64,000 bases of DNA from Escherichia coli. Its GTDB lineage: Bacteria > Pseudomonadota > Gammaproteobacteria > Enterobacterales > Enterobacteriaceae. Positions 56,801 to 62,800 of the stretch are shown here, piece after piece. The stretch lies in the NCBI RefSeq assembly GCF_003991155.1, contig NZ_CP031293.1; one strand, written 5' to 3'. Numbering within the stretch: position 1 is the first letter of the stretch; each line of letters starts with the position of its first letter. The position numbers are program-made.

Positions 56801-59800
56801 CCAAAGATATCGGCCTTGATCCTGTGGGAATGGGCTATGTGTTCTCTGCTTTCTCATGGGCTTATGTTATCGGGCAGATCCCTGGTGGTTGGTTGCTGGA
56901 TCGTTTTGGTTCAAAACGCGTCTACTTCTGGTCGATCTTTATCTGGTCGATGTTTACCTTGCTGCAAGGCTTCGTCGATATTTTTAGTGGATTCGGCATT
57001 ATCGTTGCCCTGTTTACGCTGCGCTTCCTGGTCGGGCTTGCTGAAGCGCCATCTTTCCCCGGTAACAGTCGCATTGTAGCGGCCTGGTTTCCGGCGCAGG
57101 AAAGGGGAACGGCGGTGTCGATTTTTAACTCCGCTCAATACTTCGCAACGGTGATCTTCGCGCCGATTATGGGCTGGCTGACGCATGAAGTGGGCTGGTC
57201 ACACGTCTTCTTCTTTATGGGCGGTCTGGGCATTGTCATCAGCTTTATCTGGTTGAAAGTCATCCACGAGCCAAATCAACATCCGGGTGTAAATCAGAAA
57301 GAGCTGGAGTACATCGCCGCGGGTGGCGCGCTGATCAATATGGATCAGCAAAACACCAAAGTTAAAGTGCCGTTCAGCGTGAAGTGGGGGCAGATCAAAC
57401 AGCTGCTCGGGTCACGGATGATGATCGGCGTTTATATCGGTCAGTACTGTATCAACGCCCTGACTTACTTTTTCATTACCTGGTTTCCGGTTTATCTGGT
57501 GCAGGCGCGTGGGATGTCGATTCTGAAAGCGGGCTTTGTGGCTTCCGTTCCGGCGGTTTGCGGTTTTATCGGCGGTGTGCTGGGTGGGATTATTTCCGAC
57601 TGGCTGATGCGCCGCACGGGATCGCTGAACATTGCGCGTAAAACACCGATCGTAATGGGCATGTTGCTGTCGATGGTGATGGTGTTCTGCAACTACGTCA
57701 ACGTTGAGTGGATGATCATCGGCTTTATGGCGCTGGCCTTCTTCGGTAAGGGCATCGGGGCGCTGGGTTGGGCTGTAATGGCTGATACTGCGCCAAAAGA
57801 GATCAGCGGTCTTTCCGGTGGCCTGTTCAACATGTTTGGTAACATTTCTGGCATCGTCACGCCAATCGCAATTGGTTATATCGTTGGCACGACTGGCTCC
57901 TTTAATGGGGCGCTGATTTATGTTGGTGTTCATGCCTTAATCGCGGTACTGAGCTACCTGGTGCTGGTGGGCGATATCAAGCGTATCGAGCTGAAACCTG
58001 TCGCGGGGCAATAAGATGACGACACAATCCAGTCCTGTTATTACTGATATGAAAGTCATTCCGGTCGCCGGACATGACAGCATGTTGCTTAATATTGGTG
58101 GTGCACATAACGCATATTTCACCCGCAATATTGTGGTACTCACCGATAACGCCGGGCATACCGGCATTGGTGAAGCGCCGGGCGGAGAGGTGATTTATCA
58201 GACACTGGTCGAGGCTATTCCGATGGTGCTGGGCCAGGAAGTTGCGCGCCTGAATAAAGTGGTTCAGCAGGTGCATAAAGGTAATCAGGCAGCCGATTTT
58301 GATACCTTCGGCAAAGGTGCCTGGACTTTTGAATTGCGCGTTAATGCCGTGGCGGCGCTGGAAGCCGCCTTGCTTGACCTGCTAGGTAAGGCGCTGAATG
58401 TTCCGGTCTGCGAACTGTTAGGGCCAGGCAAGCAACGTGATGCTATTACCGTTCTCGGTTATCTGTTTTATATCGGTGATCGGATCAAAACCGATCTTCC
58501 TTATCTGGAAAATACTCCGGGCAACCATGAGTGGTATCAATTGCGGCATCAGAAAGCGATGAACAGCGAAGCCGTTGTGCGTCTGGCGGAAGCTTCACAG
58601 GATCGCTATGGCTTTAAAGATTTCAAACTTAAGGGCGGAGTGTTACCTGGCGAGCAAGAAATCGACACTGTTCGTGCATTGAAGAAACGCTTCCCGGATG
58701 CGCGGATTACCGTTGATCCCAACGGAGCATGGCTGCTTGATGAAGCTATTTCTCTGTGCAAAGGGCTGAATGATGTTCTCACCTATGCCGAAGATCCGTG
58801 TGGCGCAGAACAGGGTTTCTCCGGACGTGAAGTGATGGCGGAATTTCGGCGGGCGACCGGCTTGCCCGTCGCGACTAATATGATCGCCACCAACTGGCGC
58901 GAAATGGGCCATGCGGTGATGCTCAATGCGGTAGATATTCCACTTGCCGACCCGCACTTCTGGACGCTTTCCGGTGCAGTCCGCGTAGCGCAGCTTTGCG
59001 ACGACTGGGGGCTGACCTGGGGCTGCCATTCCAATAACCACTTTGATATCTCTCTGGCGATGTTTACCCATGTGGGCGCGGCGGCACCGGGTAATCCTAC
59101 CGCTATCGATACCCACTGGATTTGGCAGGAGGGCGATTGTCGCCTGACCAAAAATCCGCTGGAGATTAAAAATGGAAAAATTGCCGTTCCTGATGCGCCC
59201 GGTCTGGGCGTGGAACTGGACTGGGAGCAGGTACAAAAGGCGCATGAGGCCTATAAACGTCTGCCTGGCGGTGCGCGTAACGACGCGGGCCCGATGCAGT
59301 ACCTGATCCCCGGCTGGACCTTTGACCGTAAACGTCCCGTTTTCGGCCGTCATTGATTTTGAAAAAGGACATAAAGATGAGTTCTCAATTTTCGACGCCT
59401 GTTGTTACTGAAATGCAGGTCATCCCGGTGGCGGGCCATGACAGTATGCTGATGAATCTGAGTGGTGCACACGCACCGTTCTTCACGCGTAATATTGTGA
59501 TTATCAAAGATAATTCTGGTCACACTGGGGTAGGGGAAATTCCCGGCGGCGAGAAAATCCGTAAAACGCTGGAAGATGCGATTCCGCTGGTGGTGGGTAA
59601 AACGCTGGGTGAATACAAAAACGTTCTGACGCTGGTGCGTAATACATTTGCCGATCGTGATGCCGGCGGGCGCGGTTTGCAGACATTTGACCTGCGGACC
59701 ACTATTCATGTGGTTACCGGGATAGAAGCGGCAATGCTGGATCTGCTGGGGCAGCATCTGGGGGTTAACGTGGCATCGCTGCTGGGCGATGGTCAACAGC

Positions 59801-62800
59801 GTAGCGAAGTCGAAATGCTCGGTTATCTGTTCTTCGTCGGTAATCGCAAAGCCACACCGCTGCCGTATCAAAGCCAGCCGGATGATCAATGTGACTGGTA
59901 TCGCCTGCGTCACGAAGAAGCGATGACGCCGGATGCGGTGGTGCGCCTGGCGGAAGCGGCATATGAAAAATATGGCTTCAACGATTTCAAACTGAAGGGC
60001 GGTGTACTGGCCGGGGAAGAAGAAGCAGAATCTATTGTGGCACTGGCGCAACGCTTCCCACAGGCGCGTATTACCCTCGATCCTAACGGTGCCTGGTCGC
60101 TGAACGAAGCGATTAAAATTGGTACATACCTGAAAGGTTCGCTGGCTTATGCAGAAGATCCGTGTGGTGCGGAGCAAGGTTTCTCCGGGCGTGAAGTGAT
60201 GGCAGAGTTCCGTCGCGCGACTGGCCTGCCGACCGCAACCAATATGATCGCCACCGACTGGCGGCAGATGGGCCATACGCTCTCCCTGCAATCCGTTGAT
60301 ATCCCGCTGGCGGATCCGCATTTCTGGACGATGCAAGGTTCGGTACGTGTGGCGCAAATGTGCCATGAATTTGGCCTGACCTGGGGTTCACACTCTAACA
60401 ACCACTTCGATATTTCCCTGGCGATGTTTACCCATGTAGCCGCTGCTGCACCGGGTAAAATTACTGCTATTGATACGCACTGGATCTGGCAGGAAGGCAA
60501 TCAGCGTCTGACCAAAGAACCGTTTGAGATCAAAGGCGGGCTGGTACAGGTGCCGCAAAAACCAGGATTGGGCGTAGAAATCGATATGGATCAGGTGATG
60601 AAAGCCCACGAGCTGTATCAGAAACATGGGCTTGGTGCGCGTGACGATGCGATGGGAATGCAGTACCTGATTCCTGGCTGGACGTTTGATAACAAGCGCC
60701 CGTGCATGGTGCGTTAAGACTGAAAACAAAAACCGGCTCTGTCAGGAGCCGGTTTGAGACTGATGCCAAACGCAAAATTGCCTGTTGCGCTACGTATCAG
60801 GCCAACATACTTTTTAATTCATTGAATTTAATTGGTTTTGTAGGCAGGATAAGGCGTTAACGCCGCATCCGGCATAAACACAGGCACTTTGTCACCAGTC
60901 TGAAACCAGCTTCATAAAAAGCCGATTGCTACTCGACAAGACGTCCGTTACCCGAGAATTTTGCTGGCTTCGCGCGCTACATTATCCATCTCGTCTAACA
61001 GTTCCAGCAGCTCCGGCTCCAAATCTTCTTCTTTAGTACCGCTACGTAGCTGTTGTTCGATCAGTTGGCAGAGATTCTTCATACGCGGCACACCGCTATA
61101 GCCGCAACTGCCATGCAGTTTATGAATCAAATCAACCAGGCCTTCCGGGTTTTCTCCAACCAGCTGTTCCTCAACTTTGTTGCGAACTTCAGGCAGGAAA
61201 TCGAGTAACATTTGCAGCATATCGCGCGCTAAATCGGTTTTTCCTGCTGCCTGGCGTAGTGCCAGTTGCCAGTCGAGGGTCGCATTCGGGTTCACCACAA
61301 TTTCGTTGACTTCGGGCGTCACGACGCGAGAGGAAATACCGCTGCCAGGCTTATAGCGCAACAACAAATTATGCAATCGCTCTTCTTCAATCGGTTTCGC
61401 CAGATAATCGCTCATCCCTGCGCCAAGCAGCTTCTCTTTTTGCCCGGCCATTGCATGCGCCGTTACCGCGATAACCGGCGTTTGTTGCTGATGGGGGAGC
61501 TGGTGGATGAGTTCGCAGGCCCGAATGCCGTCCATGTCCGGCATTTGAATATCCATTAAGATCAAATCGAACGGCATCTGTTTCGCCCGTTCAACCGCCT
61601 GATGCCCGCTATCGCAAAGTTCCACATGTTGCACCATATCTTCCAGCAATGCGCCGATAAGTTTCAGGTTAGCGGGGTTGTCATCAACCGCCATGACTGT
61701 CATTGCCAGCTTACTTTCATCGGTTACAGGCAAAAGCGTGTTTTGTTTGTGATGACAAAATTCCGTCAGGGCAGGTAACAGGCGCGTAGGTGTTAATGGT
61801 TTCAGCAGACACGCGCCGATACCATCTTGCTTAAGTTTTTCAGCATTGACTTGTGCATGGCAAGGAAGTGCCAGCATCAGAAAATCGGTCATCGATACTG
61901 CTTTCGCTAATCGCTCATGTTGCATTGTTAGCGGCTCGCGGAAGGTCACCGCGATGCCTAACAACATCATGTCGTAATGCGCGGGAGGCAGCGCGGAGAA
62001 CGTTGGGCTATAAACCACTTCCAGCGGCGTTTCACTTAAAATATCCAGCGTGCATTGCGCTGCTGCGGAGTTTGGTTCGACATAGGCCAGGCGCTTACCG
62101 GCGAGGCACTGGGTGGATGGCCCTTCGATAATAATGTTCGGGTTCAGATCGAGATTAATGTGGAACCAGAAAGTTGAACCACGATTCGGCTGGCTATGGA
62201 ACGAAATATCACCGCCCATTTCATTAACCAGTTTTTGTGTAATCACCAGCCCCAGCCCGGTGCCACCATGACGGCGGGAAATACTGGCATCAGCCTGTCT
62301 GAAGGCCTGGAATAAGCGCGATTGATCGCGTTCAGGAATACCAATGCCGGTATCCCGAATCTGCACTTCAATTTGCACTTTGGTATTACTCAGCGCACGT
62401 TTTTCTACCAGAATATCAATGTTGCCATTCTCGGTGAATTTAATTGCATTCCCCACCAGGTTAGTGATGATTTGCTGTAATCGTAGTGGGTCGCCGATAA
62501 CGTTATCAGGCACGTCGCTTTTAATATTGAGCGTCAGTTCCAGCCCTTTATCGTGAGAAGAATGTGCCAGCAGGGTAACGACTTCATCCAGCGTGCTGCG
62601 TAGTGGGAATGGAATACTTTCCAGAATCAGCTTACCTGCTTCCAGTTTCGAGAAGTCGAGAACATCATTAATAATTGCCAGCAAATTATTTGCCGAACGT
62701 TCAATCGTATTCAGGTGATCGCGCTGCGTTGGTGTTAATTCTGTTTTCAGCGTCAGGCGGGTAAAGCCAATAACACCATTCAGTGGTGTACGCAGCTCGT

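Follow-up and report, generated by a model that had tools for sequence, protein, structure and literature searches.

The window analysed here, a stretch of 64,000 nucleotides from the Escherichia coli contig NZ_CP031293.1, contains a region that is almost certainly the chromosomal gudP-gudX-gudD operon of this species. Several E. coli chromosomes show 100% DNA identity to the window, and the gud region, annotated gudP/gudX/gudD, was found in 5425 of 5426 complete genomes. All three genes lie on the + strand. The gudP gene (56662..58014, RefSeq gudP) encodes an MFS galactarate/glucarate/glycerate transporter of 450 aa, which scored 538.6 bits against TIGR00893 (cut-off 395) and also matched Pfam MFS_1; GudP is the importer of D-glucarate. 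The intergenic stretch between the end of yqcA (56227) and the start of gudP (56228..56661, + strand) is presumed to be the promoter or regulatory region of the operon, and a consensus promoter scan of it for + strand sigma-70 sites upstream of gudP returned none that was convincing. The ATG of gudX (58016..59356, RefSeq gudX; glucarate dehydratase-related protein, GlucDRP, 446 aa) is positioned 1 nt past the gudP stop codon (…CAA TAA G ATG…). A spacer of 20 nt (59357..59376, + strand, read as TGA ttttgaaaaaggacataaag ATG) then leads to gudD (59377..60717, RefSeq gudD), which encodes the 446-aa D-glucarate dehydratase; an AAGGA in this spacer, 7 nt upstream of the gudD ATG, resembles a Shine-Dalgarno sequence. 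The mechanical open reading frame of gudD begins at a TTG at 59353 and would give 454 aa; the ATG start, giving 446 aa, is consistent with the RefSeq annotation and with the 446-residue PDB chain 1EC7. An earlier note, made from the sequence, had described two adjacent 446-aa frames, and both were found at exactly the coordinates it gave.

Downstream, a G+C-rich hairpin (60730..60755; 10-11 pairs as given by the tool) lies 13 nt past the gudD stop codon, between the convergent genes gudD and barA. The - strand shows a T-run and the + strand an A-run on the 5' side; the hairpin folds as RNA with -20.1 kcal/mol (z = -4.2) and is likely a terminator common to gudD and barA, as predicted from these features. 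The genes gudX and gudD are long-known neighbours in E. coli, and the operon has long been established, as have these two genes and their crystal structures; the finding of the genome scan is correct but ordinary and, in the best-studied bacterium, of low importance.

Similarity and family assignment of GudX and GudD

A pairwise alignment, proposed in the earlier note as a check against low identity, was carried out using BLASTP and yielded 283 identities over 448 positions (63%) and 78% positives (588 bits, E = 0), a similarity far beyond chance. The longest identical peptide run is 28 aa and contains the 27-aa stretch quoted in that note, with other runs of 11-16 aa; the first motif quoted there, PVVT, is present in GudD and reads PVIT in GudX. 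The gene names, superfamily and paralogy given by the note agree with RefSeq and with the presence of MR_MLE_C in both proteins. The RefSeq product name is 'enolase C-terminal domain-like protein' for gudX and 'glucarate dehydratase' for gudD, and the corresponding PDB names are 'Glucarate dehydratase-related protein' (GudX) and 'Glucarate dehydratase' (GudD). In the Pfam search, GudX matched MR_MLE_N (PF02746, 35.4 bits) and MR_MLE_C (PF13378, 173.5 bits) and GudD matched MR_MLE_C (PF13378, 162.3 bits), the N-terminal domain MR_MLE_N of GudD not being listed at E<=0.001; the alignments of GudD to GudX and to the solved GlucD structures nevertheless span its whole length, and the two-domain architecture is accordingly found in it.

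GudD is an enolase-superfamily enzyme (EC 4.2.1.40) that catalyses the first step of glucarate breakdown, from D-glucarate to 5-dehydro-4-deoxy-D-glucarate, which GarL, GarR and GarK convert to pyruvate and 2-phosphoglycerate. In its mechanism a Lys or His base takes the proton next to the carboxylate and Mg2+ stabilises the enediolate. On account of its near-identity to the crystallised enzyme, the GudD of the window is expected to catalyse this same dehydration. TIGR03247, the NCBIfam equivalog for glucarate dehydratase, has a curated whole-protein cut-off of 828.7 bits; GudD scored 896.7 bits, above this value, and GudX 748.4 bits. Because its score lies under the cut-off, GudX was filed as GlucD-related and not as a glucarate dehydratase, which bears out the view of the earlier note that its role is the less well defined of the two.

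Catalytic residues, N-terminal loops and the proposed role of GudX

We take D235, E260 and N289 to be the metal ligands of GlucD, and K205-x-K207 and H339 with D313 to be its general bases; all of these are identical in GudX and GudD, so that the residues of an enolase-superfamily active site are present in both. Inspection of the catalytic residues in each copy, also suggested in the earlier note, found all 16 catalytic or substrate-binding residues listed for GlucD to be the same in the two aligned proteins (H32, T103, Y150, K205, K207, D235, N237, E260, E266, N289, D313, H339, N341, D366, H368 and R422), the list and the position of the lid loops being reportedly those of Gulick et al. in Biochemistry in 2000/2001. 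Against Citrobacter, Enterobacter and Leclercia, dN/dS was 0.022-0.036 for gudX and 0.017-0.038 for gudD; purifying selection on GudX is as strong as that on GudD.

The clade of GudX-type proteins (X clade) carries 19 clade-specific substitutions at positions whose conservation among all the sampled GlucDs is 90% or higher. In GudX these read I27, G28, A33, A77, F95, K100, W103, E106, V109, N110, A113, K139, T256, V285, N293, E296, A321, C337 and P417, a match that is partly circular, as the signature was drawn from an alignment that includes this GudX. Ten of the 19 fall in two N-terminal loops, residues 28-34 and 94-114, where 1.2 would be expected, although these windows were picked post hoc, after the data had been seen; an unbiased clustering test over the N-terminal 135 residues gave P = 0.011. 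In the GlucD structures these loops presumably form a cover above the distal part of the bound substrate. A natural GudX/GudD hybrid exists in Pantoea stewartii.

The reading preferred here, with a probability of roughly 40%, is that GudX would be an acid-sugar dehydratase or epimerase with its catalytic equipment in place but poor on D-glucarate, rather than a redundant isozyme or a copy in decay, and that it would act on another diacid sugar entering the same pathway or, in mixed GudD/GudX tetramers, as the subunit with a variant lid. GudX is an ancient paralog of GudD, co-transcribed with it from a gene packed tightly between gudP and gudD, and it keeps the whole catalytic apparatus; through an altered lid formed by the two N-terminal loops it would handle D-glucarate poorly. 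We know of no function assigned to GudX since its naming in 1998, and the open-access literature, searched for GudX/GlucDRP, yielded nothing informative. The glucarate/galactarate pathway is important to Enterobacteriaceae when they bloom in an inflamed gut, and its current descriptions omit GudX, which is nowhere mentioned in PMC11775122.

It is rather unlikely that GudX is instead a non-catalytic partner (pseudoenzyme) which only assembles with GudD in a heterotetramer to tune stability or activity. A single PDB entry, 4GYP, holds a GlucD chain together with a GlucDRP chain, and the two types co-occur almost strictly: 27 of the 31 X-type loci, in Enterobacterales, Pasteurellaceae and Orbaceae, have gudD directly downstream, the X-then-D order being fixed with spacers of 18-90 nt. 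The other 49 loci are D-type only (48 single copy and one, Lucifera, a tandem pair). The P-X-D arrangement is conserved over these three groups. The dN of X also follows that of D across species, and the substitution G418P lies 4 residues from R422, which we take to reach the active site of the neighbouring subunit. However, GudX keeps all metal ligands and both general bases, none of which a structural role needs, and no catalytic metal ligand or base is among the 19 X-clade sites. GudX moreover crystallises alone (PDB ID: 4IL0, 8 chains), and Halomonas has a lone X-type gene without an adjacent gudD.

This Halomonas gene adjoins KdgD genes, which suggests that X-type enzymes may yield the usual 5-dehydro-4-deoxyglucarate and so blurs the line between X and D; its product scored 708.2 bits against TIGR03247. 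The same neighbourhood, the 63% identity to GudD, the retention of all 16 of the listed residues and the strong sub-threshold TIGR03247 match (748 bits) would all suit a GudX that is a second, redundant glucarate dehydratase isozyme, yet this is considered improbable. GudX falls short of the equivalog cut-off and differs at the 19 fixed X-clade sites, and a dN/dS of about 0.03 over such time is unusual for redundant copies. GlucDRP was reportedly found by Hubbard et al. in 1998 to be badly impaired in the dehydration of glucarate and idarate. In S. Typhi a defective GudD blocks growth on glucarate while ygcY, the gudX ortholog, is apparently intact (bioRxiv 10.1101/2024.02.14.580360), which we read as arguing against redundancy. 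The catalytically equipped enzyme with an altered lid is retained as the preferred reading only as a proposal. The GudX question is narrowed by strong purifying selection, an intact active site and lid-loop changes.

Age of the gene pair and open frames on the opposite strand

The earlier note had spoken of an evident tandem duplication. The two genes do stand as tandem paralogs, whereas duplication in situ within the lineage finds no support in a dS of about 1.7, which is saturated, or in the grouping of GudX with its co-resident enterobacterial GudD as sisters in 0/100 bootstraps. Because of this saturation and a third-position identity of 44%, the GudX/GudD split is judged to be ancient and the pair to be the product of neither recent duplication nor gene conversion. 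A recent local tandem duplication, or homogenisation by gene conversion, is accordingly very improbable despite the adjacency, equal length and same orientation of the genes and their long identical peptide runs: overall DNA identity is 65%, the longest exact DNA match common to both genes is 20 nt, and 36-58% of the codons inside identical runs differ synonymously. Gene conversion in particular was ruled out by the third-position identity and by the 14 codons that differ between gudX and gudD within the 28-aa run.

The X clade was monophyletic in 93-100% of bootstraps. Mean identity was 64.8% between X and enterobacterial D, 65.1% between X and other GlucDs and 73.0% between enterobacterial D and other GlucDs, and GudX is equally distant from its neighbour GudD (65%) and from Gram-positive GlucD. 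When the tree was rooted with a distant Hydrogenophaga paralog (33% identity), the sole outgroup, the rooting failed, as the GlucDs grouped together to the exclusion of X in only 9/100 bootstraps, and the place where the X clade joins the tree shifted among long branches; counts of shared derived states (3 vs 5 vs 1 sites) were too few for power. The X clade may be older than the phyla, or may reflect a burst of change after a later duplication or transfer.

The open frames on the reverse strand to which the earlier note had pointed are real, measuring 236 aa within gudX (58643..59353, - strand) and 338 aa within gudD (59350..60366, - strand), although they carry no signal of their own. Both are codon-aligned antisense frames, in which a stop needs a sense TTA, CTA or TCA codon, and they are open only because such codons are so few: of 446 codons, 4 in gudX and 1 in gudD are of this kind, while the average over the window is 2.5%. 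Other genes of the window behave likewise (for example 48720-50561, with 429 open antisense codons), and a Pfam search of the two frames gave no match. The stop positions are not conserved in orthologs and vary among species and even among E. coli strains, the gudD frame being broken in another strain; low-GC3 orthologs have 20-37 antisense stops (31-37 for the gudD frame). For all their length, these frames have practically no chance of being overlapping antisense genes and are by-products of codon usage.

Comparison with known systems

The GudX of the window is essentially the same protein as the E. coli K-12 GudX/GlucDRP, matching 4IL0_A (1034.4 bits) and 4GYP_C (1032.9 bits) along its entire length; the K-12 chains differ from it by about 6-7 substitutions (e.g. 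E58D, E66D, D142E, I157T, L164V and K379Q), and K-12 gudX occupies the same position between gudP and gudD. GudD aligns over residues 1-446 with E. coli GlucD (PDB IDs: 1EC7, 1EC8, 1EC9, 1ECQ, 1JCT, 1JDF, 3PWG, 3PWI and 4GYP; 1026 bits), from which GudX differs at 37% of residues, including the 19 clade-fixed positions. The structures 3N6H, 3N6J and 3PFR, presumably from Actinobacillus succinogenes, are deposited as 'mandelate racemase/muconate lactonizing protein', with no function named in the PDB record. With 792.6 bits against GudX and 621.6 bits against GudD, they are nearer to the former, and they carry an X-type signature (Y/F95, K100, W103, E106, N110, A113, K139, N293, E296, A321, C337 and P417), but are far more diverged from the GudX of the window than are the K-12 chains (792.6 against about 1034 bits).

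The gudT-ygcY-gudD genes of Salmonella form the same three-gene operon as gudP-gudX-gudD under different gene names; they are transcribed from a single promoter, PgudTYD, under CdaR control, and the report describing them gives no role to ygcY (bioRxiv 10.1101/2024.02.14.580360). In the Negativicute Lucifera butyrica, an MFS transporter, a divergent GlucD paralog and a canonical GlucD are laid out like gudP-gudX-gudD, and genes for a GarR-like protein and a glycerate kinase come next. The divergent copy is altered at the X-type loop positions 29, 99, 102, 105, 110 and 111; because its remaining 13 signature sites are D-type and it falls outside the X clade, the Lucifera pair looks like an independent duplication. 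Together with the Pantoea stewartii hybrid, this analogous pair further narrows the question of GudX. Since the Lucifera layout seemingly arose independently, hexarate catabolism may repeatedly call for two enzymes with different lids, and it can be put forward, tentatively and as a generalisation we hold to be somewhat doubtful, that the GudX type would be an ancient separate subfamily with full catalytic machinery, a lid re-modelled at 28-34 and 94-114, and a role of its own, either on a different diacid sugar or, in GudD/GudX heterotetramers, as an obligate subunit with a variant lid.

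The gudP-gudX-gudD locus and its antisense frames

The locus consists of three tightly packed ORFs, all on the + strand: gudP (56662-58014, 450 aa), gudX (58016-59356, 446 aa) and gudD (59377-60717, 446 aa from its ATG, the mechanical ORF starting at an in-frame TTG at 59353). A gap of 1 nt separates the gudP stop codon from the gudX ATG, and the 20-nt spacer between gudX and gudD carries an AAGGA ribosome-binding site. A stable hairpin (60730-60755, -20.1 kcal/mol, z = -4.2) lies 3' of gudD, and an ORF of 918 aa (60948-63704) is convergent to it. At 60841-60880, in the gudD-barA spacer, an imperfect palindrome, GTAGGCAGGATAAGGCGTTAACGCCGCATCCGGCAT, was noted, present within the window as a single copy of the exact version and resembling the E. 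coli REP element consensus. The region 56200-60950, over which yqcA, gudP, gudX, gudD and barA are annotated, is 100% identical to several E. coli chromosomes and was matched in 5425 of 5426 complete E. coli genomes (5408 with at least 80% query coverage). The gudX/gudD pair is a correct finding and one already known. RNA genes found elsewhere in the window encode the small RNAs CsrB (54247-54606, + strand; Rfam RF00018, 382.9 bits), about 6 kb from the gene for BarA, the sensor kinase driving csrB expression via UvrY, and GcvB (35863-36068, - strand; RF00022, 199 bits), together with three tandem tRNA-Met (CAT) genes spaced by 110 nt (31243-31539, - strand).

The reverse-strand ORFs that the earlier note described as open across both genes are present, and both occupy the codon-aligned antisense frame, in which a stop requires a sense TTA, CTA or TCA codon. 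Four such codons occur in gudX and one in gudD, against about 11 per gene expected at the window average of 2.5%. Equally long antisense runs are found in the genes at 48720-50561 (+ strand; 429 of 613 codons open) and 32922-33728 (+ strand; 214 of 268 codons open), so the openness is general and extends beyond gudX/gudD. No Pfam match was obtained for the gudX/gudD antisense ORFs, their stop positions vary from one species to another and even among E. coli strains, and 20-37 stops interrupt the antisense frames of low-GC3 orthologs. These ORFs are by-products of codon usage.

Relationship, age and distribution of the pair

Full-length BLASTP alignment of GudX and GudD gave 63% identity and 78% positives (E = 0), which bears out the earlier account of two similar adjacent proteins, and the identical stretches quoted there were located in both, the longest being 28 aa. 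Both proteins contain the enolase-superfamily C-terminal domain, with an N-terminal domain match also in GudX. Against the NCBIfam glucarate dehydratase equivalog TIGR03247 (cut-off 828.7 bits), GudD scored 896.7 bits and GudX 748.4 bits; because GudX falls below the cut-off, RefSeq names only gudD 'glucarate dehydratase' and gudX 'enolase C-terminal domain-like protein'.

The genes themselves are 65% identical in DNA sequence (44% at third codon positions) and share no exact match longer than 20 nt; dS by the Nei-Gojobori method is about 1.7, which is saturated. Synonymous differences affect 36-58% of the codons that encode the identical peptide runs, and 14 of the 28 codons of the longest; these stretches are therefore kept by protein-level selection, and gene conversion as their source is ruled out by the same differences. 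Mean identity was 64.8% between X-type (GudX-like) and enterobacterial D-type (GlucD/GudD-like) proteins, 65.1% between X-type proteins and other GlucDs, and 73.0% between enterobacterial D-type proteins and other GlucDs. In neighbour-joining trees the X clade was monophyletic in 93-100% of bootstraps and sister to the co-resident enterobacterial GudD clade in 0 of 100. The tandem paralogy claimed earlier therefore stands, but these data give no support to a lineage-specific duplication in situ. The X/D split would be either very old or followed by a burst of change, rooting favouring neither.

Taking one genome for each species, a scan yielded 80 loci, 31 of them with an X-type gene (Enterobacteriaceae, Erwiniaceae, Pectobacteriaceae, Yersiniaceae, Budviciaceae, Pasteurellaceae, Orbaceae and one Halomonas), and gudD lies directly downstream in 27 of the 31. 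The pair is split at one sampled locus only, that of Acerihabitans arboris (L025, 2732-7320), where gudP-gudX has gudD upstream of it in the opposite orientation. Only D-type genes occur in the remaining 49 loci (Pseudomonas, Burkholderiales, Bradyrhizobium, Acinetobacter, Bacillales, Actinomycetes and others), and their proteins are 70-77% identical to GudD versus 63-66% to GudX; 48 of these loci have a single gene. The exception is a tandem pair in Lucifera butyrica (Negativicutes; L051, 3082-7326), where the gudP-gudX-gudD layout of E. coli is reproduced by genes for an MFS transporter, a 468-aa divergent paralog of GlucD and GlucD in its canonical form, the three being flanked by genes for an IclR regulator, a DHDPS-family aldolase, a GarR-like dehydrogenase and a glycerate kinase. 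Changes in the divergent copy at loop positions 29, 99, 102, 105, 110 and 111 overlap the GudX signature sites, and the pair apparently arose independently.

The lone gene after gudP in Pantoea stewartii (L022, 6001-7338) encodes a GudX/GudD hybrid, X-type from residue 1 to about 285 and D-type from about 290 to 445, the switch falling inside the 28-aa run shared by the two paralogs, and no separate gudD gene follows. It looks like a deletion through recombination between the tandem paralogs, and it is not an assembly artefact, since the exact protein is found under four accessions on seven contigs, one of 4.6 Mb. Six database proteins of 583-690 aa matching GudX (P0001-P0005 and P0009), among them one called 'glucarate dehydratase 2 [Salmonella enterica]', may represent a fusion or read-through of GudX and GudD, or have mis-annotated starts; P0001-P0005 score higher against GudX than does P0006, a full-length and near-identical GudX entry from E. 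coli (1036 bits). A lone X-type gene was observed in Halomonas eurihalina (L029, 4866-11632), its protein 68% identical to GudX, 60% to GudD and below the TIGR03247 cut-off at 708 bits. This gene lies between a TctCBA transporter and two genes for 5-dehydro-4-deoxyglucarate dehydratase (KdgD), and no D-type gene was found within 6 kb; the arrangement hints that X-type enzymes can serve as the sole dehydratase of a hexarate pathway.

Active site, lid and function of GudX

Comparison shows GudX to have an intact active site, to be under strong purifying selection and to have its changes concentrated in the lid loops. Sixteen GlucD residues that serve as bases, metal ligands or substrate contacts were inspected, as the earlier note had proposed, and all 16 are identical in GudX and GudD (H32, T103, Y150, K205, K207, D235, N237, E260, E266, N289, D313, H339, N341, D366, H368 and R422); the active site is therefore retained. 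The dN/dS ratio was 0.022-0.036 for gudX and 0.017-0.038 for gudD in comparisons with Citrobacter, Pseudocitrobacter, Enterobacter, Leclercia and others, and dN of the two genes climbs together as far as Erwinia, Rahnella and Budvicia. That gudX is a decaying copy is ruled out by these similar ratios.

Signature sites were defined as positions with one residue in at least 90% of all GlucD/GudD and another in at least 90% of the X clade. Of the 19 found, 10 lie in two short segments of the N-terminal part (L28I, S29G and P34A; R94F, R99K, Q102W, D105E, I110V, H111N and T114A), against 1.2 expected (P ~5e-8, for windows picked after seeing the data); an unbiased clustering test over residues 1-135 gave P = 0.011. 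The segments include H32 and T103, substrate contacts in loops capping the active site. A257T, T286V and S338C adjoin catalytic residues, and G418P is near R422. G78 of GudD (about 59608-59610), Ala in the GudX clade, is also a signature site, and G78D is among three substitutions in the S. Typhi GudD described as non-functional (bioRxiv 10.1101/2024.02.14.580360).

GudD opens the GarL/GarR/GarK pathway by dehydrating D-glucarate to 5-dehydro-4-deoxy-D-glucarate. GudX is absent from a 2025 description of that pathway (PMC11775122), and no paper assigning GudX a role was found in the open-access literature searched. In Salmonella the operon is named gudT-ygcY-gudD, and S. Typhi is unable to use glucarate owing to GudT and GudD defects (bioRxiv 10.1101/2024.02.14.580360). 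As its ygcY is apparently intact, this is taken to indicate that the GudX ortholog cannot stand in for GudD. On the best reading, GudX would be a catalytically equipped paralog of GudD with a re-modelled lid, and would either have a different diacid sugar as its substrate or form a variant subunit in mixed tetramers. Among known structures, GudD is the chain of PDB 1EC7, 1EC8, 1EC9, 1ECQ and 4GYP, and GudX is the 'glucarate dehydratase-related protein' of 4IL0 and of 4GYP chain C, so that 4GYP contains both proteins; the chain of 3N6H, 3N6J and 3PFR carries the same X-clade signature as GudX.
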